This document shows, piece by piece, positions 9,035 to 64,000 of a stretch of DNA of 64,000 nucleotides. The first letter of the stretch is position 1. Every line of letters starts with the position of its first letter. The notes below the pieces were generated by a model that was not told the origin of the DNA, ran no database searches, and saw only the letters and a list, made by a program, of their open reading frames with translations. The stretch comes from a virus. A program made the translations under genes and the position numbers. The stretch is from the IMG/VR virus record IMGVR_UViG_3300006925_000008, positions 33,369-97,368 of that record; one strand, written 5' to 3'.

Positions 9035-9039
9035 TCATA

Positions 9040-47257: not shown

Positions 47258-47755
47258 ATGCCGAACCTGATCGAAGCCGTAAATGCAATGAGGTCATACA
47301 ATAATACAATTGAAGCAACCTCTCTCGACACTTCAGCATTAGCGTCATGGATTGACAGAAACGCAAACACGAATGTGCAACGCCAACAACAATTCTCAAC
47401 AGATGCGGCGATAGGAGTCTTAAGTTACTACGGGCATCCTCTATTCACCAGTGCAAATCTAAACCAGTCTCAAATGGACTGGACGGCTTTAATGGCATCC
47501 GCAGAACAGATTCTTCAACAAGAAGTAACTTGGAGTAACCAACAGGTGTCAATAGCAAACTTGACTATGTTCGCTCGTTTGTTTGGTTCTGATGTTAGTT
47601 GGCTAAACACTTGGGCCAATGGACGAATGGCTCCGAATACAAGCATCGAGTTTATTGTAAACGAATTGATTTCCGATTTTAGAACCTGTCAAGGTCAAAG
47701 CGGTGCGGGTTCGATCAACCACCAGTCTCATACGCCGGTTTCACCAATACCCTGA
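47258..47755 (+). CDS. Hypothetical protein, opposite strand
   Basis: Only long ORF in the gap; ATG at 47258; converges on the GP88-like gene. Confidence 0.6.
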   Translation: MPNLIEAVNAMRSYNNTIEATSLDTSALASWIDRNANTNVQRQQQFSTDAAIGVLSYYGHPLFTSANLNQSQMDWTALMASAEQILQQEVTWSNQQVSIANLTMFARLFGSDVSWLNTWANGRMAPNTSIEFIVNELISDFRTCQGQSGAGSINHQSHTPVSPIP

Positions 47756-49020: not shown

Positions 49021-51350
49021 GGTGTCCAACTCCCCCTTGAGTTTTTCCAACTGGCTATCTCATCGGCTCCCATATCAGACAACCATGGCATGTTCGCATA
49101 TGCAAACATTTCGGGAACCTTCTTTGCATCCGACTTTACATTGCCCTCCCACCTATCGGCGGTGGCAAACTCCCCACCCTCGGACTCATCAACAAACTTG
49201 GTGTTTTCAGGATGAGGCGTGTCATGCCATGTCACGGGTATGCCCCGCTTGGCCAATGTTTGAAACAATTGACCAATGATGTCTGAATCCTCACTACGCC
49301 ATCCAGTGTGCTGGCCTTCTTGACCTCGATAAGGAGGGTCCAAAGCAACTGCGAAGTTTTCCGGCATTCGCTTTTGGTTGATCAGGTCTTTTACACCCAT
49401 ATTCAGAATGTTTGAATTGCGAAGGGTTCTATGATAATCGCCAAAGTCTGTCTCATCCTCGGTGATTCCGTAAGGCATTGTTCCACCCGCATAATATGCT
49501 GGTTGCCTTAGACCACCTTTACCCATCCATTCAGGTTTAGCCGCATCTGATTTAGCCCATTCAGGTCTAACCTTGCCAAAGTTGCCCTTTGCATCCGAAG
49601 TCCATATGTCCTCATCATCTTCACTCAATCCAAAGCGGTCCCGGTTTATTTTCCCCGAATTGATGATTGACTCCACTGATGAACCAAAGCCTCGCCCCGC
49701 ACTTGCTCTTGGTCTAGGTCCGGGCATATTCATGTGGCCACCTTTATTGTAGCGGAATGATTGCGAATAGGCGTTCTTAGAGAGGAACCATGTGAGCCTC
49801 AATAACTCAATCTCTTCATCAGGAGTAAGTCCGGCTACTTTTCGTTTGTCAGTCAAACGATTGAAACGGTCTTGTTGCTTGTAATAGTTGATTCCATAGA
49901 AGACACCTTCTAGGTCAGGCATACCAAATTGGTCAATCTCGTCTTGTGTGACGGGTCCACCGACTGGCATTTCAGGCGAACCCTCCTTGCCTTTGTATGA
50001 TGAAAAGGTCGGTGTTTCGCCAACACGAGTCAAAACCATATCCTGCAAAGCCTTTGCATCAAAGATTTCAGGGCGGTATTTGACAGCATTATGCAGGCTT
50101 GCCATCTCACGGCTTAAATCCGAACCTATGTGTGAGGGGGGTTGTAAACCATATGTGATTCCGCCACCACCCATGAATGGTTCAACAAGAGTTGTCCCCT
50201 CCTCCATAAGAGGGGCATACGCTGATTGATATTGCCTCCTGTAAGGTTTTTTCAAATCAGCCATATTCTTCACGCCCATGATCGATGCTAAGGGTTTCAA
50301 TGGTGCAGGCCTGTCCCATTTGACAACAGACCACGCATCTTCAAATATCGCTGATGATTCATCTGAACGGATAATGTCTCCCGACAATGCCTGCTCATAC
50401 ACCCTGCGTCCTTGGGGGGTCAAATCGTCAGGGTTGAAGTAAAGCCCATAACGACCAGTAGCCAAACCTTGGTTAATGCCATGCTTGCCTTCTGTTGCTG
50501 ACATAGTTGGAGGGACAGGAACACCTGCTTTTCCTTCATGCTCAACATATCCACTAGCATAGCCCGCACTAGGAATCATCAAAAGAGGGTCCACTGAACC
50601 TGTGACCTGATAATCTCTAGCCTCACGCCATGGCCTGCCTTCGTCCTCTCGATATTCACGCCTGCCTTCTTTGTCTTGGGAGAATACACTGTAACCTAAC
50701 CGAGGCATTTCATACCCCTCTTCATTGAATAAAGCAATGTCTCCTTGATATGTGCGGCCCACATTGAAACCTAAATCGCCTAGGTTTTTTCGCCCCTGCA
50801 TTAAATCAAGCATCAACTGCTGATCAAGATTACCTTGAGTCCACAAATGCCGAGACCTAACGCCGCTAAATGGTTTTTTGAACCTATCTGAATGAGACCC
50901 CTGCATTGGTCTTCCTTCTGAATCTCTATGCATTGTCCCGTGAAATGCCTGCCTTTGCTGTCCTTCATCAACGGCAATACGAGGTTTCTGAAGTGGCATT
51001 GCATTGGCAACGGCTACGACTGACGGAGAGCCAGTGCCAAACTTGCGTTCAAGGCTCAACATTGCTGAAGACTTGTCATTGACGGGGTTGGGGGAATGAA
51101 ACTTTGATTGAGAGATGTTTCTGAACATCCTTGCGTCGGCTGGTTCGCCTAGAGGGTCTTTTGACTTGAATTGCTTAGGCGGTTGCATAAACCGTGTGTC
51201 ATCAATGTTTTTTTGGTCAGCCACTGGATACATTGTCAAGCCAGTTTGACTAACCACTCCTTGGCCCGGTCTGCCTCTTTTGTTACCCGGCCATTCTTTC
51301 AATATACTGATGCCCGCTGTGGCGGCTTGGGTATGGCTGTCGCCGGACAT
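49017..51350 (-). CDS. Fusion protein with C-terminal Dam-like N6-adenine DNA methyltransferase domain
   Basis: Motif I LVEPFMGGGG followed by GSD, motif IV ALDPPY; the domain begins right after the internal AIFEDAWSVVK motif. Confidence 0.75.
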   Translation of the reverse strand: MSGDSHTQAATAGISILKEWPGNKRGRPGQGVVSQTGLTMYPVADQKNIDDTRFMQPPKQFKSKDPLGEPADARMFRNISQSKFHSPNPVNDKSSAMLSLERKFGTGSPSVVAVANAMPLQKPRIAVDEGQQRQAFHGTMHRDSEGRPMQGSHSDRFKKPFSGVRSRHLWTQGNLDQQLMLDLMQGRKNLGDLGFNVGRTYQGDIALFNEEGYEMPRLGYSVFSQDKEGRREYREDEGRPWREARDYQVTGSVDPLLMIPSAGYASGYVEHEGKAGVPVPPTMSATEGKHGINQGLATGRYGLYFNPDDLTPQGRRVYEQALSGDIIRSDESSAIFEDAWSVVKWDRPAPLKPLASIMGVKNMADLKKPYRRQYQSAYAPLMEEGTTLVEPFMGGGGITYGLQPPSHIGSDLSREMASLHNAVKYRPEIFDAKALQDMVLTRVGETPTFSSYKGKEGSPEMPVGGPVTQDEIDQFGMPDLEGVFYGINYYKQQDRFNRLTDKRKVAGLTPDEEIELLRLTWFLSKNAYSQSFRYNKGGHMNMPGPRPRASAGRGFGSSVESIINSGKINRDRFGLSEDDEDIWTSDAKGNFGKVRPEWAKSDAAKPEWMGKGGLRQPAYYAGGTMPYGITEDETDFGDYHRTLRNSNILNMGVKDLINQKRMPENFAVALDPPYRGQEGQHTGWRSEDSDIIGQLFQTLAKRGIPVTWHDTPHPENTKFVDESEGGEFATADRWEGNVKSDAKKVPEMFAYANMPWLSDMGADEIASWKNSRGSWTP

Positions 51351-51499: not shown

Positions 51500-52309
51500 T
51501 CACCTTACATTGGACCCGTCGAAGCAACGCTTGCAGTCTCCGCAGGTTCCCTCAATACTTTGATCGTGCGCTTTTCGTATATTCAATGGACATAGTGCTT
51601 TGTATCTATCGCCCTTCTCGTTTAACAATTCTGAATAAAGCAATGCTGGGGGGGAGTAATTGTCGTAAAAAAACAAAGAAACACCATGGTCATCCATTAT
51701 TTGTTGCATGTCAGGGTATTCGCCTTTGTCGCACTGATATGAAAAGAATATACGGTCTTTCATAGGAATGTCTAATGAAAGCACCTTTTCCCTACGCTTT
51801 AGGGATTCTTTATCGAGACTAAAGTGTAAATGGAGATTCGGATAATTCTTTACAAGTTTTGCCATTTTTGGTATTCTTGTCACAATCCATATGACCACAT
51901 CGGGATGATTTTCACCTATGTGGTTCAATGCTTCAACAGATTCAGGGAATAGGTCGCCTCCGCCGTTCCACCGCAGGTAAGTAAGTGAACGCTTACGATA
52001 TTCTTTAATGACTTCTTCAGCGAACCAAATGGGGTCTTTGACACAGTTTTCGTAGCACCAAACCTGTTTTCTTAGAGAATTGGTCCACGCCGTCATCCCA
52101 TTGGCATAATAGCAGGTCTTGACGCACAATTTAGATGGATTGCATGTCCCCTGTATAGGAAAATTAAGCGACCATCCTGATACCTTGTTTGCGCTTAATA
52201 TGTCAGTTGGCCTCTTCAATTCAGGCATTTCGTCGTTTTGGTCAAGTATTTTGAGCCTTATGTCCTTTGTTTTCTTGATAACTCTCGTTACACGGGCTTG
52301 GTCGGCCAT
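51500..52309 (-). CDS. GP88-like Cys-rich (radical-SAM-related) protein
   Basis: NK...SLNFP..GTC...C...CYY, LRWNGGGDL, WIVTR, LHFSLD and CP...CGDCKRCF. Confidence 0.7.
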   Translation of the reverse strand: MADQARVTRVIKKTKDIRLKILDQNDEMPELKRPTDILSANKVSGWSLNFPIQGTCNPSKLCVKTCYYANGMTAWTNSLRKQVWCYENCVKDPIWFAEEVIKEYRKRSLTYLRWNGGGDLFPESVEALNHIGENHPDVVIWIVTRIPKMAKLVKNYPNLHLHFSLDKESLKRREKVLSLDIPMKDRIFFSYQCDKGEYPDMQQIMDDHGVSLFFYDNYSPPALLYSELLNEKGDRYKALCPLNIRKAHDQSIEGTCGDCKRCFDGSNVR

Positions 52310-52346: not shown

Positions 52347-52736
52347 TCAAATCTCACGAGCGATATAGCCTCTTGAATGAATCTCTTTTGGCTTCGTCCG
52401 TTCAACATCGGTCAATGGATACCCAACCGATTTGCCTTCTTTATCCTCTTTTGACCCCTTTGGGACTCTATGTTGTTTTCTATCCCGGTCAAACTCCTGT
52501 GAATTGTTGTATTGCTTTGGCTTTTCAATATCCATAAAGCCGACTAATTCAGCGGGACCTTTGCCCGTCCTGATAATACCGACCTCCTCACCCACATACG
52601 GGTCGAGACTATTGGTCCTTCTAGTTTCAATGGTCTTCTCACCATCAAGTATCATTTCAGTATATGGGGCTTCACTATCATTGATGTTAATCCCCATCTG
52701 TTTAACCAATGCCCACGCTCGGTCAAAGGCCGTCAT
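52347..52736 (-). CDS. Leader-tagged ASCH (PUA-like) domain protein
   Basis: MTAFDRAWALVK leader; PYTEMILDGEKTIETR matches the ASCH GxKxxExR motif. Confidence 0.8.
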   Translation of the reverse strand: MTAFDRAWALVKQMGININDSEAPYTEMILDGEKTIETRRTNSLDPYVGEEVGIIRTGKGPAELVGFMDIEKPKQYNNSQEFDRDRKQHRVPKGSKEDKEGKSVGYPLTDVERTKPKEIHSRGYIAREI

Positions 52737-52760
52737 GGTAATGGGACGCACCGATCATAC

Positions 52761-53180
52761 TTAGGCGATCTGTTTGGTTATAGCCCAAGCATCAACAAAT
52801 GCTTTGTCAGATGATGCAGTGAAGTAATCGGCCAAACGACTCCCGCCTTTATTCCAGTCAGGGTCTTCAGGGTCAATTTCTAAACCGTGAGTATCCTCTT
52901 CAACATCTCTCGGATTAAATCTAGGTTGGGGGTTGGAGGGGTTCATACCCTGCGGGTCCGTGGGGTCCGGCTTGTATCCCCTGAATGGGTTAGGCTTTTC
53001 ATTTTCCCTGCCGGTGTATGCTCGTGGGATAAAACCTGATTGCCTTCTCCCCTCTTTTTCATAATCCTCTAGGGGTATTCCTGTTGTTCGTGGGTCGGTG
53101 TCGTCCCAGTCTTCCTCCTCGTCATCAGCAGGAGCCATTGCCGACTTTAGAACATTCCATGCCCGATCAAAGGCCGACAT
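52761..53180 (-). CDS. Leader-tagged acidic hypothetical protein with a second motif copy at the C-terminus
   Basis: MSAFDRAWNVLK...AFVDAWAITK; TGATG overlap. Confidence 0.7.
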   Translation of the reverse strand: MSAFDRAWNVLKSAMAPADDEEEDWDDTDPRTTGIPLEDYEKEGRRQSGFIPRAYTGRENEKPNPFRGYKPDPTDPQGMNPSNPQPRFNPRDVEEDTHGLEIDPEDPDWNKGGSRLADYFTASSDKAFVDAWAITKQIA

Positions 53181-53665
53181 CAACAATTCCACCGTTTTAA
53201 TGAAGCACCCTTTGGGGTAAGTTTGCCGCCTTTACTGGTTGGTCCCTTGACACCGCCCATTCTTGCACAGAACGATTTACGGCGTTTTGCTTTTTTAGAG
53301 CCGGGTTTGAGGGATGATGGCTTTTCAGTTACAGGTGGCTTCAGATTCGCCCCTTCTTCTCTTTTTGCTTTGGCTCGGCCTTTAGCATTTAATCCACCCT
53401 TTTTGCTGTGTTTGTTTGGATTGTAACCATGAAATGGCTTTGACTTAGCCTTTGTTAAAAGAGATGCAACAAGCACATTGCATGTGCCGCAGTCACAAGC
53501 CGACTTCTTTGTCGATGATGGGACGCAGTTTGGGACTTTACGACCTCCCTTTTCTTTCATACCAACCTGCTTGTATCCGTCCCAGCAAGGGTCTTCCTTC
53601 TCCTCTTTGTATGTCTTTTCCTCGTTTTTCAACAGGGACCATCCATTAGCAAAAGCAGATGACAT
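53180..53665 (-). CDS. Leader-tagged basic protein with small phage modules
   Basis: MSSAFANGWSLLK; PCWDGYKQVGMK...VPNCVP and GGLNAKGRA...RRKSFCARM...RWNC modules, recalled from marine phage proteins. Confidence 0.7.
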   Translation of the reverse strand: MSSAFANGWSLLKNEEKTYKEEKEDPCWDGYKQVGMKEKGGRKVPNCVPSSTKKSACDCGTCNVLVASLLTKAKSKPFHGYNPNKHSKKGGLNAKGRAKAKREEGANLKPPVTEKPSSLKPGSKKAKRRKSFCARMGGVKGPTSKGGKLTPKGASLKRWNC

Positions 53666-53667
53666 AA

Positions 53668-54312
53668 TCATTCCTCGTTTTTAGAGTCCTTTTTATCGCT
53701 TGGTTTCTTAAACTTTGAAGAACCCGGCATAGTGTGAGTATTCTTTCTTGCACGGTCAATTAGACCCTGCCCTAGTTTAGGTGGCTTTGCGGGGTTCTCC
53801 ATGTCAGGAGATTTACCTTTTCTGTCGCCGCCAGCGGTTCGTCTTTTTTCCTCACTACGCTTCTGTTCGTAGTTTTTAGGAGACATTTCACGCATTGGAC
53901 CTTCGCCTTGTCCACCATACGGCTCGCCCGTATCACCTTTGCCGGGGTAGTCTTTTGGATTCGCCATCATTCTTTTTTGGCGTTCCGGGTCCATTTGGCC
54001 CATTGCATCAGGAGGAGTAATGTCTCCCCTATCAAACATTCTTGTTCTTGGAGGCGGTGAGTCGTATTCAGAAGGTGGTCCCGTTGGGTTCATTCCTCCC
54101 ATTGGGTTTTGATGCATTGGAGGGATTTTTTGGCCCTCTTCAACTCTCATGTTGATCAGCGCATCTAGTAAACGGGGGTTCATTCGACGCATGGCATCAG
54201 CATGGGAGCCTTGCCCCAGTGGACCATTGATGGTATTACCATCCATTGGGTCATCACCATACATATTTGGCATTTTAAGCACGCTCCATGCACGCTCAAA
54301 GGAATCGGACAT
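53668..54312 (-). CDS. Leader-tagged Pro/Gly/Met-rich disordered protein
   Basis: MSDSFERAWSVLK leader. Confidence 0.7.
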   Translation of the reverse strand: MSDSFERAWSVLKMPNMYGDDPMDGNTINGPLGQGSHADAMRRMNPRLLDALINMRVEEGQKIPPMHQNPMGGMNPTGPPSEYDSPPPRTRMFDRGDITPPDAMGQMDPERQKRMMANPKDYPGKGDTGEPYGGQGEGPMREMSPKNYEQKRSEEKRRTAGGDRKGKSPDMENPAKPPKLGQGLIDRARKNTHTMPGSSKFKKPSDKKDSKNEE

Positions 54313-54335
54313 GGTTTTGCGAGGGTGTTTAATAC

Positions 54336-54506
54336 CTAAACACTTTCTATAAGACCGGCTTCTTTTATCTCATCCTGCGTCATTTCACGCATCCGCCGCT
54401 GGCATTTACTGCAATTGGGCCTTTTGGCTATTGAATACAACCGATGGATTGATTTTGTGTCAACATTGTAACATCCCCTGCGACATTCGCACCATCTATA
54501 CGGCAT
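54336..54506 (-). CDS. 56-aa zinc-ribbon protein, below ORF-track cutoff
   Basis: Hand translation MPYRWCECRRGC...PNCSKCQRRM...GLIESV*; fills the gap on the coding strand. Confidence 0.6.
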   Translation of the reverse strand: MPYRWCECRRGCYNVDTKSIHRLYSIAKRPNCSKCQRRMREMTQDEIKEAGLIESV

Positions 54507-54561
54507 AGATTTCAAGAGATGGGCTGTTGGTTTTTGAATGTTTACTTCGGGTCAAAGGGTT

Positions 54562-55275
54562 TTATTGTCCCCTCTCTCTCAAACGCCTTACAAAGTCATG
54601 TGGTTTTGAACCACCAATCAACATATCATTTGTTGTGATTTTATCCCAAAGTGGTTGTTCACCGTATAACTCTTCAAGGGCTTCATACAATTCCCCTGAA
54701 TGCACTTCATCGCCTCGTAAATCGGGATAAATAGATTCCCAGTGGCCACGCCCTCCTTTTCGGGGCGGGAGGAATATATTATCCCATGCCTCATCCTCAT
54801 CACCATCATCGGAGTAATGTTCTTCCTCAAAGTCATCCATTTCTTCGTCATACAAATCCGAGTCAATGATATTTTGAATGATTTGGGCTATGTGTTCATC
54901 CGGCAATTTTTTTGAATGAGGCGGGACAACCCCTTCTTGATCATGAAAAGCCACACGGCCTCTTTCAATTGCGCTTGAAATACCATTACCCATGTATTCT
55001 TCATCCCTCGGAACATCAATGTATTCATCCTTTGGCGCAGTTGCCATGTGTAATTCGGGATAATGCACATTTGCATCAACAAAAGGCGAACCCTCGTAAT
55101 CGTTGCGTGGACCAAACATTGCGTAAGCCAAAGCCTTTGATTTGTGCGGTGTCCAATATCCTGTGTCTTCGTCACCAGTCCTTCGACCTTGGTATAAATA
55201 ATCAGTCTGCAAACCGCCGTCCTCGACGACAAAAGGCATTTTGAGAAGACTCCAAGCCTGATCGAATGCGGTCAT
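54562..55275 (-). CDS. Leader-tagged protein, possible ADP-ribosyltransferase-like fold
   Basis: MTAFDQAWSLLK; LYQG...GYWTPHKSKALAYA; paralog of 57378..58127. Confidence 0.5.
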   Translation of the reverse strand: MTAFDQAWSLLKMPFVVEDGGLQTDYLYQGRRTGDEDTGYWTPHKSKALAYAMFGPRNDYEGSPFVDANVHYPELHMATAPKDEYIDVPRDEEYMGNGISSAIERGRVAFHDQEGVVPPHSKKLPDEHIAQIIQNIIDSDLYDEEMDDFEEEHYSDDGDEDEAWDNIFLPPRKGGRGHWESIYPDLRGDEVHSGELYEALEELYGEQPLWDKITTNDMLIGGSKPHDFVRRLRERGQ

Positions 55276-55782
55276 TCAATAATCACCTACTTCTGTGTGC
55301 CATCTCATTTTTTCCCGCCAATCACGGTCATTTGGGTCTTGGAGAATATGCGCCAACGACTCCCAACCATATTTCAAATCTCGCTTCCTGTTTTGTAATT
55401 TCCAACTAATCACATCATCTAAGGTAAGAGCATGACCGTATTCATGGTTGTAATTTTTAATAAAATCCCTGATAAATCGTTCCTCAAAAAGTGGATGGCT
55501 CGCATCCTTTGATGCCGCAAGCATTTCCTCAAAGCCTTTCATGTCTTCTATTTTGTCAGCATCATCTATCATATTAAAACTGGTTCCCATCGCAATGTTA
55601 GGGAGGTGCAAAAGAATGTTGCCTTCATTTGGTTGGTCGGAGATAAACAGGCCTTCAGGTATGGTCGCCCTATTGCTTTCTTCACCCGTAATGTCTTGAT
55701 AGCGTTTATGCCAATTGCTTTCGCTTGTTGTCAAATCAGGAGATATTTTGATTAAACCCCATGCGGTGTCGAAGGCGGTCAT
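55276..55782 (-). CDS. Leader-tagged HExxH zinc metallopeptidase-like protein
   Basis: MTAFDTAWGLIK; NHEYGH with downstream ESLA. Confidence 0.65.
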   Translation of the reverse strand: MTAFDTAWGLIKISPDLTTSESNWHKRYQDITGEESNRATIPEGLFISDQPNEGNILLHLPNIAMGTSFNMIDDADKIEDMKGFEEMLAASKDASHPLFEERFIRDFIKNYNHEYGHALTLDDVISWKLQNRKRDLKYGWESLAHILQDPNDRDWREKMRWHTEVGDY

Positions 55783-56552
55783 TCATACCCCTCCAACCAT
55801 TTTGGTTTACCGTCAATAGTGAGGGTGTTTGGGTTGTCAGAATAAGGCTCAAGGAGCCGCATCAAATCATTAAATCTCTTAAATCTGCCTTCATCTCTAT
55901 CGTTAAAGAAGTCCAATACCTTTGAAGTCGGATGTTGAATGCCGTAAGGGTTCAATGCTTCCGTTTGATATTTCTCCGGGTTATCAGCCTGAAGAGACCT
56001 ATCAAACTCTATTCCAATACCATCAAGGTCAAAATTGCGTAAGTGTCCCGCACTGTCGGTCCCATAATTTCCTTTATGCCTGTCTTGAATAAGATGTGCA
56101 AGCGCACGATCAGCCACCTCAAATTGTTGATTGACATCCATGTTGCCGCCCCCTCGCATTACATTGGCGTTCAATTTAGGCTGAATTGTATGCTCCCATT
56201 CGGAACCCGGCATTTCAGGGGCTAAAGGATAACCAAGTTGCTCAAGGAATTGAAGAGTTTCTGCTTCATCAGGTTTCATGCGACGGGTCTTGAAACTATC
56301 ACGATAATAATCGTCATCGTGCGGGACCTTAACAACAAAGTCTTCGCTCCATGGGTGTTCAAACACATGAGTTTTTGACCCGCTATTTAGAAAACCCTCT
56401 ATGTCCTCTTTATATTCGTCATCATCAGTGTCCCACTGTTCAATGAAAGGCATTTCATCCTCTTCAACAGGCCCTATGTCTCTAACTTCATCACGCCAAT
56501 TTGGTGTGTAATTTTTGAGAAGGCTCCAAGCCTGATCGAATGCGTCAACCAA
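55779..56552 (-). CDS. Leader-tagged kinase-like protein (PI3K/HipA-type catalytic loop)
   Basis: TTG start behind GGAGG gives MVDAFDQAWSLLK; LNSGSKTHVF, FVVKVP, DRHKGN, NFDLDG. Confidence 0.7.
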   Translation of the reverse strand: MVDAFDQAWSLLKNYTPNWRDEVRDIGPVEEDEMPFIEQWDTDDDEYKEDIEGFLNSGSKTHVFEHPWSEDFVVKVPHDDDYYRDSFKTRRMKPDEAETLQFLEQLGYPLAPEMPGSEWEHTIQPKLNANVMRGGGNMDVNQQFEVADRALAHLIQDRHKGNYGTDSAGHLRNFDLDGIGIEFDRSLQADNPEKYQTEALNPYGIQHPTSKVLDFFNDRDEGRFKRFNDLMRLLEPYSDNPNTLTIDGKPKWLEGYE

Positions 56553-57381
56553 AGAACCGCCTCCTTCGTAATTCATCCATGATACCCTGATGCTCCATGC
56601 CTTCGACAAGCATTGCACCATACTCTTGTTGAGTATTGGGGGGATTGCTTTCTGAATAATACATTGGCTCATATCCCTCGTCTTCAAACTCCATCTCTCG
56701 GTTTTCCTTTAGTGGGCTGAATACCGCCTGATGTCCTTCTTCATGAGCAATGCTGTCAATGATTCTTCTGATCGTGTCCTCTTCATTCATTCCATGATAC
56801 CATGGGTGAGATAAATTAACACCAGTGTAATAATCACGCTCTTTAGAGTCATAATGCGGGTCTAGTCTCATAGAATCCCACCTTCCGGCTGACCCGTCCG
56901 GGTCATCGGTCCCATAATAGAAGTTTGACTTGAGCAAAGTCCAAGCGGTGTCGAAGGCGGTCATAGGTTCACCTGCTAATTTTTCTTGCCAATCATCACT
57001 ATGGGCTTCATCAATATGAAAATCGCCTATTTCGTCTATTTTTGATTCGGGATTGGGGATGAAAATGCGAGCGTGTTTTGGGTCTTTTGGATTCTTTCTT
57101 TTTCTTGATAGGTTTTGTAAATCCTCTTGATAATCAGCCATAGCCTGTTTAGCACCGACATATTCCCCCTTTTCATCGGCTAAACGGTTTGTGCCAATGT
57201 GTGTCCTCTCCATCGATTGTGGTTTGTCGCTATTCGGCATTAAAACCTCAATCGGTTCAGCAACATGAAACCAACGCTGAAATCTATTGAAATCACCATC
57301 TCCCTGATCGTATGCTTCTTGAAGTGTTTTTGCGGTGGCATCCTCTTCGCCTTTGCGCCAAGCGGTGTCAAAGTCGGTCAT
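56545..57381 (-). CDS. Fusion of two leader-tagged modules; C-terminal HExxH peptidase-like domain
   Basis: MTDFDTAWRK start; in-frame internal MTAFDTAWTLLK at 56964 with its own GGTGA; IAHEEGH...EYGA. Confidence 0.7.
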   Translation of the reverse strand: MTDFDTAWRKGEEDATAKTLQEAYDQGDGDFNRFQRWFHVAEPIEVLMPNSDKPQSMERTHIGTNRLADEKGEYVGAKQAMADYQEDLQNLSRKRKNPKDPKHARIFIPNPESKIDEIGDFHIDEAHSDDWQEKLAGEPMTAFDTAWTLLKSNFYYGTDDPDGSAGRWDSMRLDPHYDSKERDYYTGVNLSHPWYHGMNEEDTIRRIIDSIAHEEGHQAVFSPLKENREMEFEDEGYEPMYYSESNPPNTQQEYGAMLVEGMEHQGIMDELRRRRFFG

Positions 57382-58127
57382 ATCCAATCATCCTCCGAAT
57401 ATCCAGCCTCAATAGCGGCCTCTCGTTGCCAATCCTCTAAATCATTCCATTCGCCAAGCATATCAGCCATGCTATCATCATAACCGAGCGTTTCTATAAA
57501 ATCGTCATATTCAGCCGTTCTAAACACATCTCCATCCATCTCATAACTCGGTGGTTTTGGGTTGAACCTCTCAAGTGATTCATTATTCCTGTAAGCAATC
57601 AAGCGGCTTAGAGCGTCTTTTGCGTGTTGCCCTCTTTGTTCACCGCTAAACATTTCGCCTGTTGTTCCACCCAAAGACCCAACTCCTCCAACCCTGTATC
57701 GGCCCTCATCAATGTATTCTTGAAGTAATTCAATAACTCGGTCATGCGATAACCGATCACCCATGTTATCATCATCCATAACACCAATACCGGGGCTAAA
57801 CGGGTCTTCTTGCATTATACCGACTTCGGGTTCTTGAAAATCTCTTGGGTCAATAATGCTGATACTTGGTATTGTTCTCCGCATTGGCGGGGTGGTTTTA
57901 CCTTCTGTATCTCTTCTCCCTCCCTTATCAGCATAAGGAACGGCTGAACCATACAAAGCATAATGCAAAGCAATATCAGGGTCGTTTGAATAATAGCGTG
58001 GGTCATCTCTAAAATCGCCACCGCTATACAACATCTCATCATCACCAATCTGTCTTATTCGGCCACGGTCCGAATAAACATCAATAGGGGCTTTCACCAA
58101 AGACCAAGCGGTATCGAAGGCGGTCAT
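57378..58127 (-). CDS. Leader-tagged protein, possible ADP-ribosyltransferase-like fold
   Basis: MTAFDTAWSLVK; LYSG...YYSNDPDIALHYA. Confidence 0.5.
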   Translation of the reverse strand: MTAFDTAWSLVKAPIDVYSDRGRIRQIGDDEMLYSGGDFRDDPRYYSNDPDIALHYALYGSAVPYADKGGRRDTEGKTTPPMRRTIPSISIIDPRDFQEPEVGIMQEDPFSPGIGVMDDDNMGDRLSHDRVIELLQEYIDEGRYRVGGVGSLGGTTGEMFSGEQRGQHAKDALSRLIAYRNNESLERFNPKPPSYEMDGDVFRTAEYDDFIETLGYDDSMADMLGEWNDLEDWQREAAIEAGYSEDDWI

Positions 58128-58681
58128 GGTGGTGTTCTCCTAACCATGTATTCTCCTTTGTCATTATCCATTCTTTTTCCTTGATGAGAATACGGTGCTA
58201 TCCCCGCATCCATGTATTGAAACGCTTGGTCGGCTATCCGGTCAAGGGATTGCAGGTCAAATATCCCCGCATCGTTTAATGCGTTGATTAACGAAGCCCT
58301 CTCCAATTCCCCCATAAGCACTTCTGTTCCCATGTCGGACGGGCGTTTGAATGCGGGTATTTCATCGCTTCCATAGCGAAAGGACTTATCCTCTATACCG
58401 TCTTTCATATTTTCACCAAAGTCCCCCATCTCATAATCAATCACAGGGGGATTATCCATGCGCTCACCCCTCCTTCGTTGTAATTCGTGAGCGACACTCT
58501 CCATAAATTGTCCATCGGGAACATCTTGGTTATTCCCCGCATCAAAAGCCCTAAAATCGGGAATGCGAGAACCTCTAAATGCTAAGTTAGCGTGTGCGTC
58601 TGTAAATTGTGGGCGGTCCAAAGGTGTCGGCAACCGCATATCGGTCTTAAGTAAATCCCAAGCGGTGTCAAATGCGGTCAT
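58124..58681 (-). CDS. Leader-tagged hypothetical protein
   Basis: MTAFDTAWDLLK leader. Confidence 0.7.
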   Translation of the reverse strand: MTAFDTAWDLLKTDMRLPTPLDRPQFTDAHANLAFRGSRIPDFRAFDAGNNQDVPDGQFMESVAHELQRRRGERMDNPPVIDYEMGDFGENMKDGIEDKSFRYGSDEIPAFKRPSDMGTEVLMGELERASLINALNDAGIFDLQSLDRIADQAFQYMDAGIAPYSHQGKRMDNDKGEYMVRRTPP

Positions 58682-59751
58682 CAGTCATCGCCCCCGTAAA
58701 TCAAGCGATGTAGTCTTTCTTTATCCTTTTTTACCTTTTCAGGTGATCGATAAAAGTCGGGGTTTTCTTCATAAAACTTACCCATGCTGTGAGATACTTC
58801 TCTTTGCATGTCATGATGGTCATCAAGGGAGTTACTGCTATACTCGGCAACTTTCTGTTTCCAGTCTGAATCCTCATTATGAGGGTCTTCATAAATAGAC
58901 GCTAAAGACTCCTGCATCAGTATCCGGCGCATAATGCCGCTTATGTCATCATCAACACTGCCACCTCTCCTTTGGTCGCCAACATAATGCTCTCCCCCTC
59001 TTTCTGCATATTTGTTGGTCCATTCGTGTTCTTCTTCAGGTTGAGTTGTATGACCTAATTCATGGTTAATGATGCTGATAATCCTGTCCATAATGGGAAT
59101 GTCCTCATTATCTCTTAGGTATGACTCTCTTTGAGAGTTATAAGCGTCTTGACTTCGCCTATGCCTCCTCTCGGCAATCTTGTTGTTTGCTCTTAAACGG
59201 TCTTGTTCTTTAGATTGCTCTCGCCAGTTATCGGAGTCATAATCAATACTAGGCATGTCCATCCAATGAGTATATCCCGGTGTTCTTGTCAAAGAGGGGG
59301 GACTTGGATTGTTTTTGCTATATTCCTCCTCCATGTCAAATCGAACATTTTGGGTGATGTTGGGAAGGCTGATCAACATTCGGCCATCACCAAAAAGTGG
59401 TTTGTTATAGTCATTTGATGTCTCACCTCGCCAATTAGTTTTCTGTTCGTAGCCTTCGTCACTATTGGCTTGACCGCTCGGAGTAAAACGACCATACTCA
59501 TCTAAGTAGCGTTCTCGATGTGTTTGATTCTCTTCACCGCCATGTGCGTCTTCACGGTCAGGTTTATCCCAATGAGGGACTTCATCCCAGCCACCATCCT
59601 TATCATACTTGTTTGGGTTTTCTTCGGGGGTATCCTTTAAGCGGTTATACAACCACATCCGCTTGTAAGCAATTTCTTGAGGGGTTTCATTACCCTCAAT
59701 AAAATCAAAATCAGCCTTAAGGAAAAGCCATACTTCATCGAATGCGGTCAA
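58681..59751 (-). CDS. Leader-tagged HExxH zinc metallopeptidase-like protein
   Basis: TTG start behind GGTGA gives MTAFDEVWLFLK; IINHELGH...ESLA. Confidence 0.65.
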   Translation of the reverse strand: MTAFDEVWLFLKADFDFIEGNETPQEIAYKRMWLYNRLKDTPEENPNKYDKDGGWDEVPHWDKPDREDAHGGEENQTHRERYLDEYGRFTPSGQANSDEGYEQKTNWRGETSNDYNKPLFGDGRMLISLPNITQNVRFDMEEEYSKNNPSPPSLTRTPGYTHWMDMPSIDYDSDNWREQSKEQDRLRANNKIAERRHRRSQDAYNSQRESYLRDNEDIPIMDRIISIINHELGHTTQPEEEHEWTNKYAERGGEHYVGDQRRGGSVDDDISGIMRRILMQESLASIYEDPHNEDSDWKQKVAEYSSNSLDDHHDMQREVSHSMGKFYEENPDFYRSPEKVKKDKERLHRLIYGGDD

Positions 59752-60622
59752 TGACTTCACCGCCTTTATTCTTGATCGCTCTTACTGCACGGCGCATTTT
59801 CATGCCACGAGGCTTATTTTTTATCCAATTAGCCAGTCGCACAGCATCTTTCAGGTCCTTTGACTTAACACCACAGTCGATGTCTCTAGCCTCGCACCAA
59901 TCCACGAATACTTCAGTCGCTAGGTTTGCACCTGAACCGGGAATGAATGGGCAACCACCTAAGCCGCCAATGCTAGTATCAAACTCGGTTATCCCTAAAT
60001 CAACAGCAATATCGACATTTTGATACAAATAAGGGCCATGATGCAGGTGTAATGCGATGTTTTCAGTAATTGCACTGGTAATGTCGTATGCTTTCTTGAT
60101 CATCACCGGAGTGGCAATACCATCGGTGTCGCATAGCACTACGCCGTTGCCGAATTGCATTCCTATTTCGACAGCATTCTTCAAGTCTTCATCGGGACAA
60201 TCGAATGCCATTGAGATATAGACACGCACTTTGCTAGGTTCTATACCCTCCAATGCCAATTTGTATTCTTCAACGATAGAATCTAAGGTCCTGCCATAGT
60301 TTGACATGTTGAATACTTCATTGGGTGAGTAAAATATGTTGAATAAGTCAGCACCTACTAACTTAGCACGGTCAACACCACGCTTATTCGGCACTAAAAC
60401 CGACATATTAGCATCTAAACCGGCAACTGCGGCATATACGCTGTCGCTTTCAGCCATATTTGGGACTAATTTGGGATGAACAAATGCACCGACTTCTATG
60501 TCAGTAAGTCCTGACTTAGCCAACGCCTCCACTAATTCCACCTTTTCATCAAATGAAATGCTATGAGGAAGTGCTTGAAGGCCATCTCTAGGCCCAACTT
60601 CAAAGATGGAGACTTTCTTCAT
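59735..60622 (-). CDS. Hydroxymethylglutaryl-CoA lyase (DRE-TIM metallolyase)
   Basis: IFEVGPRDGLQ, IEVGAFVHPK.VP, LVPNKRG, LCDTDG, LHLH, GGLGGCPF.PG..NLATE. Confidence 0.88.
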   Translation of the reverse strand: MKKVSIFEVGPRDGLQALPHSISFDEKVELVEALAKSGLTDIEVGAFVHPKLVPNMAESDSVYAAVAGLDANMSVLVPNKRGVDRAKLVGADLFNIFYSPNEVFNMSNYGRTLDSIVEEYKLALEGIEPSKVRVYISMAFDCPDEDLKNAVEIGMQFGNGVVLCDTDGIATPVMIKKAYDITSAITENIALHLHHGPYLYQNVDIAVDLGITEFDTSIGGLGGCPFIPGSGANLATEVFVDWCEARDIDCGVKSKDLKDAVRLANWIKNKPRGMKMRRAVRAIKNKGGEVIDRIR

Positions 60623-61794
60623 ACCCATCCACCTTCAGTATCACGGAAGAAGTCTTCTCCAAGCAATTGGGCAATGCGAGAGTCGGGGTTCTTTTCACTG
60701 AAATCCATCAGGCGTTTCAATGGGACAGCGTTTTCATGAAAGAACCCGTGGACACCCGACGAACCCATTGGGGTGACATATGTCTTCAGGTCGGAGATCG
60801 GATTGCGTTCTTTGCCTTCATACCTTAATTCCAGCGGATATGTATCATGTAATTCAGGGTTGGTCTTATCGCCCCTTCTCCTGTAAATCTGTTCAAACTT
60901 GTATGGATGTGGGCTTGGCGCACCCCACTTGGTCCCTTTCAACTGCCATTTACTTGGTTCCTCATAATAACTGCCGCCCATCACGGGGCGTTGATAAATC
61001 ATATCTCCCTCTTGGTTCTTCCTTCGGATTACATGGTCTGTGTTCCACTTCCCGCCATCTCTCCAAGGCTTTCTGTTAATTGCCATCCTCCGGCCATATC
61101 CGCCCTCGGTCATTTGCCGACCAAGTTTATTCCACATGCCATAGGCTTCAGGAGAATATGAGTCATCGCCTGCCCGACCATAGGTTTGAGCCATGGTCCC
61201 CAGCATATGAGAGCCAATTCCTTGGCCACCCATTCCGGGCAATACGCTCATCTGTGCTACATTGCCATCCAGCGTTGGTGCGCCGTGTCCGACAGTCATC
61301 CATTCTTTAGAATCGGTATCCGCCTCATGGCGTATTGCCGCTTCAAGGACTTCGGGGGCTAATGCCTGTTGCCACGGAGTCCATGCCACCGGCCTCCCGC
61401 TTCCATGTCTAGCAATACGGCGTTGCTCAAGGTGTTGAGGAAACTCGGCTAGACCTAATGGACTTGAATAGCGGTCATGTTTCATTTCACGAAGGGTTGA
61501 TTCAACAGTATCTCGTCCACTTCGACTGTCCTGATAGGGTTCGTCCTCCCATTCGGCATATACATCGGGCCATTGGTCGTATCTCCTATTGCGAAGTTTA
61601 CCTAAACGGTCAATGTTCTCCTCCAAAATTGGGATAACCTTGCCAACAGGCATTTTATACTCGTGCTGAAGCACGCCAGCATCTGAATAACCCATGCTCA
61701 TGTTGGGTCTGATGAGTTGTATCAGGCTTTCAGGGGTCTGTTGAAGAATCGGGTCAGCCTTAATGAGGTCCCATAACTGGTCGAAAGTTATCAT
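60619..61794 (-). CDS. Leader-tagged protein with GNAT acetyltransferase-like domain
   Basis: MITFDQLWDLIK; MSVLPGMGGQGIGSHML (motif A) and SPEAYGMWNKLG (motif B-like). Confidence 0.65.
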   Translation of the reverse strand: MITFDQLWDLIKADPILQQTPESLIQLIRPNMSMGYSDAGVLQHEYKMPVGKVIPILEENIDRLGKLRNRRYDQWPDVYAEWEDEPYQDSRSGRDTVESTLREMKHDRYSSPLGLAEFPQHLEQRRIARHGSGRPVAWTPWQQALAPEVLEAAIRHEADTDSKEWMTVGHGAPTLDGNVAQMSVLPGMGGQGIGSHMLGTMAQTYGRAGDDSYSPEAYGMWNKLGRQMTEGGYGRRMAINRKPWRDGGKWNTDHVIRRKNQEGDMIYQRPVMGGSYYEEPSKWQLKGTKWGAPSPHPYKFEQIYRRRGDKTNPELHDTYPLELRYEGKERNPISDLKTYVTPMGSSGVHGFFHENAVPLKRLMDFSEKNPDSRIAQLLGEDFFRDTEGGWV

Positions 61795-63437
61795 AGGCCC
61801 CGGTTCTCCATAAATTGACTAATATCAAAGTCTTTCCCCATAAGTTTGGCCGCATTAGCAACCGCACGGAGTCCCATTGCTTTTCGACTATCAGGGACTA
61901 CGCCAGCCTGATCGTTCACTGAACCAACCATCCGCTGGTCTTTGAGATGATGTCCAAGGTGGCTTATCTCACTTTTAGCATCATTTTGATAACTGTTGTA
62001 TTTGGGTGACAATCGCCTGTAATCTCTAAACAATGCGTCTTCAGACCCCGGTTCCATAGGAATAGAGTCATAATCAGGGTAATAGTCATCAGGGTCGATG
62101 TATTCATCCCACTTGTCCTCATACCAGCGGTTCCCTTCAGCCCCTGTTCTTACCCGGTATCCTCCGCCATATACCTCACTTCTTGGTTCAGCAAAAGCGT
62201 ATTCGTCGGAAAAGTCTGACAGTTTAGGAGGGAATGGGATGCCGGTCAACCTAGCGGTGTGAATCTCATCACCCATTGACATGCTTTCAGGAGACAGGTT
62301 GGTTCCGGGGTGAGCGGCATAATCCGCCCATGCATCCTCGTGCCTGCGATGAACACGGTTCCTTGGACCGTCTTGTCTTCGTCCAAAGGTCTTATTTGCA
62401 TTATTCAGCCCCGTTTCTTGACCTAAATGGGCCGCATACTCGTGCGCCCTGAAGAAGTTATCATCAACAAAGGCCTGCAATGCCGCCCGCTGTTCAGGGT
62501 TTGGCTTGTCATCATTTACTAAGCCATAGTCATCCTTCGCTTTCTGATCAACAGCCGCTTGATAGTGAGCCATCAATTCATCATTAACAGCGGCGTGCAT
62601 TGCTTCGTGGTGTAATGTTTGCTCAACACCCTCCTCTAATCGGTTCGATTCCTCTAAACCACGACCATAGACTCCGTAATTCATCCACCACGCTGGTGAT
62701 GACAGGTCAACGCCATAGAATCCTTTTTGCTGTTGAGGCAATACCTCACGCTTAGGCAACTGCTCCATATAGCGTTCAGGGGTTCCATCCTCGCCGTATC
62801 TCCAACGAGGCATTTCTGTTCGTGAATAGTTTTCAGCACGCCCTGCTTTGGTTCGCAGGTCATGGTTTTTACCGACTGGGACAAAATGCCCCAATGTATC
62901 TCCACCCATTGCACCCTGCATCATTCGCTTGCCATTATCCCTGACAGGCGTTCCAAAGAAGAAGTCCTTAGTGAGCATGTCCCACATGAAATCGAATGGG
63001 TCATCAAATGAAGTCGTGAAGTCTAAATCGGACCAAGGAGAGTCAGGCGGCATGTTCTCACCGCTGATCGGAATCCCATGGTCATCTTCTCTCGGACTCC
63101 ATTTGAAACCGCATTCAGTGCAATGGTCCCAGTTGTCAATGGAGGGACAGGGACATTCACCGCCTAGATAGGTCGGCATCAATGGCTTGTCAGTCATGGC
63201 CTCCTCTTCAGCAATAGCCCTAGCCTCTTCAATAGTTTCAGCATGACCCATTGCTATTGCCTCATCACCTAATTCATACAACTCATTATGGTATTCCATT
63301 GCATCCTCCGGCCATTCCTCACCGTGATTCTGTTCACCACCCATACGCCTGTCCAAAAACTGCTTTGGGTCATCGTTTTCAGCGTCAGAATCTTTCAAAA
63401 AAAGAAAACCAGCAGAAAATGCATTACCGCCGGTCAT
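61791..63437 (-). CDS. Multi-module protein: acidic/zinc-ribbon module, internal motif, HExxH peptidase-like module
   Basis: Start moved to MTGGNAFSAGFLFLK; internal FDFMWDMLTK; LHHEAMH...HEYAAH. Confidence 0.65.
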   Translation of the reverse strand: MTGGNAFSAGFLFLKDSDAENDDPKQFLDRRMGGEQNHGEEWPEDAMEYHNELYELGDEAIAMGHAETIEEARAIAEEEAMTDKPLMPTYLGGECPCPSIDNWDHCTECGFKWSPREDDHGIPISGENMPPDSPWSDLDFTTSFDDPFDFMWDMLTKDFFFGTPVRDNGKRMMQGAMGGDTLGHFVPVGKNHDLRTKAGRAENYSRTEMPRWRYGEDGTPERYMEQLPKREVLPQQQKGFYGVDLSSPAWWMNYGVYGRGLEESNRLEEGVEQTLHHEAMHAAVNDELMAHYQAAVDQKAKDDYGLVNDDKPNPEQRAALQAFVDDNFFRAHEYAAHLGQETGLNNANKTFGRRQDGPRNRVHRRHEDAWADYAAHPGTNLSPESMSMGDEIHTARLTGIPFPPKLSDFSDEYAFAEPRSEVYGGGYRVRTGAEGNRWYEDKWDEYIDPDDYYPDYDSIPMEPGSEDALFRDYRRLSPKYNSYQNDAKSEISHLGHHLKDQRMVGSVNDQAGVVPDSRKAMGLRAVANAAKLMGKDFDISQFMENRGL

Positions 63438-63619
63438 AGTTTCCCCGAAGGGGACCCAAAAGAAAAACATTGGGGAGATCGCACGCCAAAAACAGCCCAT
63501 TGCACCCTGTTAGGGCTGACAGCCGTTACCAAAAAAAATTGGGCGTAGCGTATGCGGTCAGCCGCCGCCCCGAAAAGAAAAAAAAAACATCTCCAAAGGC
63601 ACGCCAAAAGAAAAAGGGG

Positions 63620-64000
63620 ACAGCCCAGCCGCAGGCTGGGCATCCAATCGTGGCACTGGTCGGCTGGTCCAATGGCTGAACGCATTACTGCGCCCCATTG
63701 ACTCGATCATCTAGGCTGAACCCAGCAATGGACTGGTCCAGCATCCTGCTGGACCTGAATGCGGGCTGGTTTTGGGTGGTTCTCGGCCTGCATTGGCCCA
63801 GCCCAGCCACATTGGGCCTGTCCAGCGGTTTCAATGCGTTCTAGGCCCAGCCATTGCCCATTCTGTCCCCATTGCCCAGCCCAGCCTCCTCAATGCATTC
63901 CCAGCCCAGCCAATACCCTAGTTTCAGCACCCAGTCCAGTCAATGCATTGCCAGTTTCAATGCCATTGGCCGAAAACCAACAGGCCAAGCCTCCCCCAGC
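63620..64000. repeat. Non-coding region of short degenerate repeats (CCCAGCCCAGCC, CCATTG/CAATG) with hairpins
   Basis: Multiple CCCAGC units; inverted repeat 63735-63755; palindrome caatgcattg at 63941-63950. Confidence 0.7.

Follow-up and report, generated by a model that had tools for sequence, protein, structure and literature searches.

Tag-coding repeats as probable sites of cassette exchange by short-homology recombination in a group A magrovirus

The turnover of a cassette array in a group A magrovirus is likely to result from short-homology recombination between repeats that encode a common N-terminal tag, as judged from the comparison of assembled sequences. A first-pass annotation had proposed that the tag-coding DNA may be a recombination handle by which genes are added, dropped or swapped, and had suggested alignment of the locus across relatives. 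In this alignment, the breakpoints of gains, losses and swaps fell into the tag repeats. Gene content was not conserved but differed between close relatives, and most of the block ends examined and many of the indels were positioned at tags instead of being unrelated to the repeats. The comparison revealed breakpoints, hybrid tags and a mosaic divergence of adjacent cassettes in the contigs considered here.

Magroviruses, which are tailed viruses of the Marine Group II archaea of the ocean, rank with the most abundant viruses of archaea in its surface waters. The stretch of 64,000 nucleotides analyzed, called “the window,” makes up the right-hand 64 kb of a genome of 97 kb, which belongs to a group A magrovirus on the basis of gene content. 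The window contains a head module with TerL, portal, prohead protease and major capsid protein, and the prohead protease gene at 22794-24122 matched head maturation protease PHROGs (1.9e-22). The virus also encodes a thermosome subunit of the archaeal type (match at 2.8e-154). Such a subunit has been reported for magrovirus groups A and D (Philosof et al. 2017, PMC5434244), and the tailed-virus head module and the archaeal-type thermosome subunit, on which the assignment to group A is based, were both found. The closest TerL proteins were those of Bacteroides phages, with 27% identity. When the array was compared by blastn with 50,697 phage records, zero matches were obtained, and no description of the tag or the array was found in the literature searched on magroviruses.

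The array is one tightly packed operon, located upstream of GP88-like genes, a methyltransferase gene and head-assembly genes. Unrelated genes in it start with a tag of 12 residues with the consensus M-T-A-F-D-x-A-W-x-L-L-K, and the repeat coding for this tag occurs about 16 times in 11 kb, once per 0.4 to 1.1 kb. A close relative of the window, with 85 to 96% nucleotide identity, is represented by two records of the same form, L104 and L132. The features needed for the comparison are as follows.

52347..63434, minus strand: array of 14 tagged genes or modules and two untagged genes, all in one direction, from the open reading frame list, translations and motif scan
59735-60628 and 54336-54515, minus strand: the untagged array genes, HMGL-like and a 59-aa open reading frame, respectively
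62970..63428, minus strand: two tags within the first gene, at 63393-63428 and 62970-63005, which bracket a 357-nt in-frame module
61759..61794, minus strand: less canonical tag (MITFDQLW) of gene 60619-61794, a gene kept in L104
59716..59751, minus strand: tag of cassette 58681-59751, TTG start; hybrid of two L104/L132 tags
58646..58681, minus strand: tag of cassette 58124-58681; L104 homology stops at 58645
58092..58127, minus strand: tag of cassette 57378-58127; L104 homology begins exactly at the ATG (58127)
57378..58127, minus strand: cassette with changing neighbors across magrovirus contigs
57346..57381, minus strand: tag of module 56965-57381 (MTDFDTAW...); L104 homology stops inside, at 57358
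56929..56964, minus strand: tag of module 56545-56964, one of two copies with 20 identical nt
56514..56552, minus strand: tag of cassette 55779-56552, TTG start, VDAFDQAW
55747..55782, minus strand: tag of cassette 55276-55782, the other copy with 20 identical nt
55240..55275, minus strand: tag of cassette 54562-55275, the final gene of the segment replaced in L104 (57387-54562)
54516..54561, minus strand: untagged intergenic spacer; L104 homology resumes at 54548 (breakpoint F)
52701..54309, minus strand: conserved right-hand part of the array with tags at 54274-54309, 53627-53662, 53145-53180 and 52701-52736
50319..50354, minus strand: internal tag of a 777-aa protein, just before its D12-class methyltransferase domain

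The cassettes gave few indications of function or descent. For the cassettes of both the window and its relatives, Pfam and PHROGs searches matched almost nothing, the few matches being DUF6321, a weak ASCH and a weak Tpt1/KptA (E = 0.022). The array had been called an accordion; as far as this term means duplicated genes, it does not apply, because the cassette bodies are unrelated to one another. Gene amplification of the poxvirus K3L type, with tandem copies of the same gene, was rejected since all-against-all blastp of the window's cassettes yielded no paralogous pair of bodies at E < 0.01.

The tag is also a repeat at the DNA level. As the first-pass annotation had stated, positions 55763-55782 and 56945-56964 are identical over 20 nt, and the second pair of copies, at the genes starting at 55275 and 56552, agreed at 29 of 30 positions (55240-55269 versus 56514-56543). 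The similarity of this second pair extends to a 55-nt unit with 80% identity, while the bodies are unrelated. A repeat search of the window found 10 gene starts with a copy of a 35-nt unit, and a unit of 35 to 36 nt is present at about 16 places overall. The pattern ACCGCNTTYGAYNNNGCNTGG, with at most one mismatch, had 8 matches, all on the minus strand, versus 0.00 expected. The overlaps of start codons with preceding stop codons described before were likewise present, as ATGA at 61794, 58127, 57381 and 55782, TGATG at 58681 and TGA-ATG at 55275. Among 375 canonical tags of relatives, 305 start with ATGA, and a Shine-Dalgarno-like 5-mer is located upstream of 229, compared to 19 of 375 in a control stretch. 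Tag pairs in the window have a mean identity of only 55%, which rises to 68% for the tags from 59751 to 55275, and exact runs of at least 12 nt are shared by only 8 of 120 pairs. The tags within 52701..54309 are less alike in their DNA, and their genes are retained in L104. Canonical tag DNA was found on 5 of 6 variable cassettes versus 3 of 10 conserved ones, an excess that is only suggestive.

The window and L104/L132 share five blocks, and the differences in the array amount to an inserted cassette, an in-frame module and two replacements. Six block ends (A to F) were examined, five of which are in or at tags; the single breakpoint outside tags (F) is in the spacer. L104/L132 carry an additional cassette of 288 nt with a tag on either side, and the tag at 59751 in the window is a hybrid of these two, with the crossover in an 18-nt core common to both and an overlap of 24 nt. 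Two other cassettes replace the body of 58124-58681 in L104, and one cassette of 525 aa is present instead of segment 57387-54562. Neither L104/L132 nor a contig from a 2025 sample contains the 357-nt module of the first gene; this indel has its right end at the start of the second tag, and the joint in that contig connects 62987 to 63376. Hybrid tags, the hallmark of a crossover in register between two tags, are present in several products. Because the tags resemble each other, alignments run into any of them, and the exact crossover is often ambiguous within 8 to 24 nt.

Further relatives and samples gave a similar picture. Cassette 57378-58127 is present on at least 7 contigs with different neighbors, and its homology starts exactly at the ATG. 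Its synonymous divergence between the window and L104, calculated for codons of identical residues, is 6%, compared to 15 to 35% in the flanking genes, which points to a recent exchange of this cassette as a unit. Module 56965-57381 is without a stop codon and continues in frame into the next tag; three genomes have it fused at this tag, each to another partner. Contigs from other samples split exactly at 58681, 56965, 56929/56930 and 55759, and the sequence of a Logan contig comes to a loose end exactly at 58681. In a contig from a 2025 sample, agreement with the upstream cassette extends over 24 nt of the tag at 55747..55782 before a different body follows, and divergence between L032 and L055 begins directly after the TGG. 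Among the 35 pure indels listed for related contigs, 9 had a tag at both ends, 10 at one end and 16 at neither; for comparison, only 8% of randomly chosen positions are within 45 nt of a tag. Eleven tag-to-tag indels display overlaps of 16 to 44 nt, five of them in other clades with the variant tags PMDxAWxLLK or PI(D/E)AAWxxLK.

Since the tags are at gene starts without a spacer, selection for intact genes would also leave junctions there. Illegitimate recombination could then occur anywhere, with only precise gene-to-gene junctions surviving and the tags being passive marks of the borders. The genes abut with ATGA overlaps so that gene border and tag coincide, the indels between L024 and L084 and between L167 and L170 share merely 5 to 6 nt (TATGA) or a stretch of Shine-Dalgarno sequence plus ATGA, and one breakpoint is in a spacer, all of which would agree with selection alone. 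In contrast, L071 and L087, as well as L073 and L085, are identical across the entire tag including its variable positions before unrelated bodies follow, meaning that junctions at the 3' end of the tag keep the resident variable positions in front of a new body. Other junctions are inside tags, as hybrids, and one is at the tag within the open reading frame without a stop codon. Moreover, about 17 events within arrays included zero imprecise in-frame fusions. Selection alone is therefore an unlikely, albeit conceivable, explanation for the junctions.

Evaluation of these junctions needs to consider the origin of the data. The evidence is entirely comparative and was drawn from metagenome assemblies, in which neither circles, duplications nor live events were seen. 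Assemblers can be misled by repeats and may jump between similar tags or co-occurring strains and generate false deletions or mosaics; overlaps of 16 to 44 nt are within the small word sizes of assemblers. The Logan contigs are blind to rare variants and circles, and uncovered stretches as well as small word shares were excluded. However, contigs of several other samples bridge the junctions of the window, the L104 form exists in two records, and its short first gene is also present in a 2025 sample. The flanks of the alternative forms differ by 3 to 15%, so that these forms represent distinct lineages, and the replacements introduce whole new open reading frames. An assembly artifact is thus very improbable as the source of the rearrangements.

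A dedicated site-specific recombinase that recognizes the tag DNA, in the manner of an integron with attC sites and an integrase, is similarly hard to reconcile with the data. The array does resemble an integron in its promoterless, unidirectional cassettes with a single repeat for each, and many open reading frames of the genome have no known function. On the other hand, the array had been predicted to be integrase-free, and no integrase or resolvase was indeed found in the 97-kb genome, estimated to be 92% complete, by searches for Phage_integrase (PF00589) and Resolvase matches. The crossovers are scattered over the whole tag without a fixed position. Folding of six junctions gave z-scores between −1.07 and +0.10, indicating no excess of secondary structure, which rules against a hairpin of the attC or PeSL (promoter-early stem-loop) type.

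Short-homology recombination between tags, as the preferred reading, raises the question of why the tag DNA is similar at all. The leader codons had been described as conserved at the nucleotide level, including synonymous sites. The repeats are real, as both pairs demonstrate, but the statement on synonymous sites was overstated for the window, where the fraction of same codons in the tags was 0.414 versus 0.379 expected from the codon usage of the genome (P = 0.07). The longest exact run among these tags was 21 nt (P = 0.013). Their codons were evenly distributed for Phe (TTT 8, TTC 8), Asp (GAT 6, GAC 6) and the first Ala (GCA 5, GCC 5), and the sole clearly biased residue was Thr, with ACC in 12 of 13 cases. 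In 575 distinct tags from many related contigs, ACC reached position-specific fractions of 0.62 to 0.74 versus a background of 0.21, and GAC reached 0.68 versus 0.31. GCC preceding TGG amounted to 0.01 versus 0.21, being avoided there because CCWGG is totally absent from the genome.

This near absence of GCC (1%), together with the location of the tag in the region of translation initiation, which often limits codon choice, would fit a nucleotide bias that serves translation or restriction avoidance and has no link to recombination. Such a function would account for the codon bias but not for the breakpoints, and as a full explanation it is most unlikely; it is compatible with tag similarity as a by-product.

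Homogenization of the tags within genomes was small. Same-codon fractions were 0.514 within and 0.448 between genomes for the tags, and 0.403 and 0.367, respectively, for the bodies; the resulting excess of +0.066 versus +0.036 was not counted as evidence for concerted evolution. Synonymous sites are barely homogenized within genomes, and recombination is therefore rare relative to mutation. Orthologous tags diverged by 12.3% versus 13.7% for their own bodies and were thus not better conserved. At the borders of swapped segments, 19 of 108 nt of the tags differed and 27 of 450 nt of their bodies, while off the borders the numbers were 13 of 180 and 76 of 750. The similarity of the tags is mostly the result of protein constraint plus some codon bias, and the exact runs of only 8 to 21 nt place the recombination at the scale of microhomology. 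The DNA similarity is probably a by-product of protein constraint and not an adaptation for recombination. That the tag has a dual use, with the codons ACC, GAC, GCT, TTG and CTC, which lineages have in common, selected to keep the DNA recombinogenic, appears doubtful. If true, the cargo arrays of magroviruses would have evolved into a cassette system without an integrase, and the address label of the proteins would serve as a coding attC.

Each cassette opens with about 50 nt of common DNA, composed of a Shine-Dalgarno-like GGAGG or GGTGA, the ATGA overlap and the 36-nt tag, so that in-register direct repeats are spread throughout the array. In the mechanism proposed, recombination may occur within replicating concatemers or between co-infecting relatives, and could lead to deletion of the cassettes between two tags, to insertion, or to replacement via crossovers in two tags. 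A crossover in register inside the coding tag leaves every product with a complete tag and does not disturb the reading frame, the ribosome-binding site or the overlap of stop and start codons. The reaction might be performed by host RadA or by annealing after resection, perhaps with the viral PD-(D/E)XK and ERCC4-type nucleases; both nucleases are encoded by the viral genome, and no RadA was found in it. We infer these enzymes, and also the benefit, which would be a fast turnover of virion cargo. By analogy to the capsid targeting sequence of phage T4, the tag may be a virion-loading or propeptide signal. If the tagged genes encode virion cargo, the tag joint would explain how injected proteins can be renewed quickly with frame, tag and expression intact. 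Repeat-guided modular shuffling, known in T4-type phages, would be extended to archaeal viruses and to a coding repeat. As a rule for reading magrovirus genomes, cutting the arrays at the tags should yield the exchangeable units.

Among known systems, the closest are the mobile regulatory cassettes with PeSLs, which have been described in the hyperplastic regions of the T4-type phages RB49 and phi1 (Arbiol et al. 2010, PMC2839356). The PeSL is non-coding and contains a sigma-70 promoter, a terminator hairpin and a Shine-Dalgarno sequence, and excised mini-circles with a chimeric motif have been demonstrated (PMC2839356). In both systems, short conserved motifs flank non-essential open reading frames, and the conserved motif is repeated between the open reading frames of a variable region, as found here. 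Where close relatives differ by an insertion, deletion or replacement, the breakpoints are at the motif, also in the magrovirus; the process is integrase-free, homology patches below 50 bp suffice, and the products stay expressible. The magrovirus repeat differs in being composed of a Shine-Dalgarno-like sequence, start codon and 36 coding nt without a hairpin, and its host is an archaeon.

The polymorphic internal-protein locus of T-even phages with its capsid targeting sequence, reportedly described by Mullaney and Black and by Repoila et al. in 1994, shares the short common N-terminal leader on unrelated proteins and the prohead protease in the genome, both found here; in each case, close relatives also differ in their sets of genes. 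The sequences are not similar, however, and loading and cleavage in the magrovirus, whose host is uncultured, are putative; the magrovirus array is far larger, with tags inside open reading frames as well.

In Rhs/CdiA polymorphic toxin loci, toxin tips are displaced. The DNA for a conserved peptide is the crossover site there as well, and unrelated modules are swapped in frame. The Rhs/CdiA motif precedes a C-terminal toxin and is accompanied by an immunity gene and silent orphan copies, whereas in the magrovirus the motif is at the N terminus, each cassette is expressed as a gene of its own and immunity genes are not evident. Integrons have one-directional promoterless cassettes with one repeat each in common with the array, which differs by the lack of an IntI-type integrase in the 97-kb genome, of structured attC sites and of crossovers at one position. 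Finally, boundary or linker sequences contribute to mosaicism in lambdoid phages according to the modular theory. Short conserved sequences at gene borders favor exchange between relatives in both cases, but the lambdoid linkers are sporadic and mostly intergenic, whereas the linker of the magrovirus is a systematic coding tag.

Fourteen genes or modules in the co-directional minus-strand array between 63434 and 52347 start with the 12-residue leader or "tag", M-(T/S)-A-F-D-x-A-W-x-L-L-K, or with a less strict version of this motif. Extra copies are found within the first gene, at one C-terminus and within a methyltransferase protein of 777 aa. A degenerate pattern of the tag DNA gave 8 matches versus 0.00 expected. 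The first-pass annotation had claimed identity of 55763-55782 and 56945-56964, which was borne out over 20 nt, and a sequence shared between the genes at 55275 and 56552, which was found as 30-mers at 55240 and 56514 that agree at 29 of 30 positions and sit in a 55-nt unit with 80% identity. The stop/start overlaps at the tag junctions were also as described. The junction consensus is GGgGg, 7 nt, ATGACcGC.TTtGACaa.GCtTGG; 61% of the tag copies are preceded by an SD-like 5-mer and 81% show the ATGA overlap, and the junctions displayed no excess folding compared to shuffled controls. The tags are real as repeats, yet weaker as DNA repeats than had been stated. In the 777-aa protein (49017-51350, minus strand), which is flanked by two GP88-like (PF17338) genes (47728-49050 and 51500-52309, minus strand), the internal tag lies immediately before a D12-class adenine methyltransferase domain.

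That recombination at the tags adds, drops or swaps genes was supported by the alignment of the locus across relatives, which had been proposed along with this claim. A close relative of the virus is represented by L104, an IMG/VR contig of 107 kb also retrieved as L185, and L132, a GenBank metagenome contig, both with 85-96% nucleotide identity to the window. Five homology blocks were shared with L104 (63995-63354, 62996-59727, 59750-58645, 58127-57358 and 54548-49919). Only the window has the in-frame module of 357 nt that separates the two first-gene tags, L104 holds an additional 288-nt cassette between the HMGL-like gene and the cassette 58681-59751, two other cassettes replace the cassette 58124-58681 in L104, and one 525-aa cassette in L104 replaces the five window modules from 57387 to 54562. 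Six block ends were inspected at the nucleotide level, with the pair around the 357-nt module inspected separately. Five of the six were inside a tag or at its edge, and the sixth (54548) was in the spacer that follows the final tagged gene of this stretch. The two alignments share 24 nt at the 288-nt indel, where the window tag is a hybrid, its 5' part being that of the upstream and its 3' part that of the downstream L104 tag, with the crossover mapping to an 18-nt stretch identical in both L104 tags. When orthologues were compared, tags bordering swapped segments had 19 differences in 108 nt and the bodies behind them 27 in 450 nt; away from the borders, the tags had 13 in 180 nt and the bodies 76 in 750 nt. 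Both comparisons are consistent with recombination.

From 198 loci, collected with one scan for the DNA pattern and three at the protein level, pairs with 90-98% identical flanks were compared. In L071/L087 and L073/L085, identity continued through the whole tag including its variable positions and was followed by unrelated bodies; L032/L055 broke directly after TGG, and L022/L050 differed by two single-cassette indels of 354 and 194 nt with overlaps of 16-18 nt inside the tags. Among the 35 pure indels listed, about 30 of them independent, a tag was within 45 nt of both ends in 9, of one end in 10 and of neither end in 16 cases. Only 8% of random positions were that near to a tag, so that about 0.2 double-ended indels would be expected by chance. 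On either side of five indels were tag variants that belong to other clades (PMDxAWxLLK and PI(D/E)AAWxxLK).

Selection for intact genes alone would also place surviving junctions at the tags, and the array genes do abut. Four observations, however, favour a crossover site within the tag itself. Some junctions are at the 3' end of a tag and join a resident tag to a foreign body; hybrid tags occur; and no imprecise in-frame fusion was seen among about 17 within-array events. Moreover, the module 56965-57381 lacks a stop codon and is read in frame into the next tag, with a different downstream partner in the window and in two related contigs. In none of the three genomes does this 139-aa module (MTDFDTAWRKGEE...) end in a stop codon of its own:
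Window, 56545-57381, minus strand
Contig L005, about 8900-9315
Contig L093, about 4350-4763
An SD-like AGGTGA is just upstream of the internal ATG, so that a separate product may be made as well as the fusion protein.

At least seven further contigs carry the cassette 57378-58127, with different neighbours every time, in alignments that start at its ATG (58127) and stop within the tag that follows (57358 or 57368). Of its codons for identical residues, 6% differed between the window and L104, versus 15-35% in the ten flanking genes, so that its common ancestor is more recent than that of the backbone. In a comparison at contig level, contigs of several 2017 marine samples bridged the window's own junctions, which makes their misassembly unlikely. 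Other contigs part from the window exactly at 58681, 56965, 56929/56930 and 55759, the last being 24 nt into a tag and leading into another S-L-L-K-M-P body. The first gene is in its short form in a 2025 sample (joint 62987 to 63376).

Conservation of the leader "including synonymous sites", as previously claimed, did not hold for the whole window: the same-codon fraction was 0.414 versus 0.379 (P = 0.07) when the expectation was conditioned on amino acids and genome codon usage. The codons for Phe, Asp, Lys and the first Ala were used about evenly, with Thr as the exception (ACC in 12 of 13), and the longest exact run between window tags was 21 nt (P = 0.013). Strong codon preferences at some positions were common to all lineages among 575 distinct tags from many contigs. 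GCC for Ala before Trp (TGG) is nearly absent from the tags because the genome lacks CCWGG, with 0 sites versus about 126 expected in G000:C1:1-97368, the whole record (third-order Markov model; 0 CCTGG versus about 58, 0 CCAGG versus about 68); there were 210 GGWCC sites. The lack of CCWGG suggests that a host restriction system cutting this sequence is being avoided. Homogenisation of synonymous sites within genomes was slight, indicating that exchange is rare relative to mutation, and nothing points to selection of the tag nucleotides for recombination.

Concerning cassette content, the HMGL-like (DRE-TIM metallolyase) gene is untagged and located mid-array (59735-60628, minus strand, Pfam 2.3e-20); many further magrovirus contigs have it at 40-50% identity, placed within or next to tagged arrays or close to head genes. 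An HExxH motif is present in four window cassettes:
61791-63434, minus strand
58681-59751, minus strand
56545-56964, minus strand
55276-55782, minus strand
Two of them share N-H-E-x-G-H, visible also as DNA repeat D16. No family match was found for these cassettes, which may encode small zinc peptidases. Arrays of many relatives contain cassettes with M-P-(Y/F)-H-G-T...G-L after the tag:
Contig L186, 3240-3719 and 7838-8272
Contig L192, 237-830
Contig L191, 7912-8364
One such cassette gave a weak match to Tpt1/KptA (ADP-ribosyltransferase fold; E = 0.022, below threshold); if real, it would be a counterpart to Alt, the ADP-ribosyltransferase that T4 packages.

The window is the final 64 kb of one linear 97,368-bp virus record (92% complete according to CheckV, GC content 46%), and its minus strand carries nearly all window genes. 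No close relative was found among deposited phages. A tape-measure-like protein and the following proteins were identified in the window with PHROGs:
32879-34294, large terminase subunit
29634-31475, portal
22794-24122, prohead protease
21584-22753, major capsid protein
The terminal 500 nt of the record (63500-64000) contain no convincing gene, only proline-rich spurious ORFs, and a short tandem-like repeat near the end (63880-63904 and 63930-63954, 80% identical); this may be the genome end or a regulatory region. The left arm, outside the window, encodes (record positions, plus strand):
G000:C1:2156-3799, thermosome subunit (Cpn60_TCP1; 2.8e-154)
G000:C1:16884-17978, PD-(D/E)XK nuclease (2.2e-21)
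G000:C1:20260-21000, ERCC4 + HhH nuclease (1e-14)
Thermosome genes have been reported for magrovirus groups A and D (Philosof et al. 2017, PMC5434244).

An "accordion" of duplicated genes was rejected, as the cassette bodies are mutually unrelated. The "integrase-free" part of this proposal agreed with the genome search, which turned up neither a tyrosine integrase nor a serine resolvase nor RadA/Rad51. Short-homology recombination is the most likely mechanism, acting between tag-coding repeats that are in register; such a crossover would leave tag, reading frame and translational coupling intact, and the two left-arm nucleases are candidates for assisting recombination by strand annealing. 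Among known systems, the nearest is the modular shuffling mediated by promoter-early stem-loops (PeSLs), the mobile regulatory cassettes of T4-type phages (PMC2839356); unlike these, the magrovirus repeat is coding, has no hairpin and resides in an archaeal virus.
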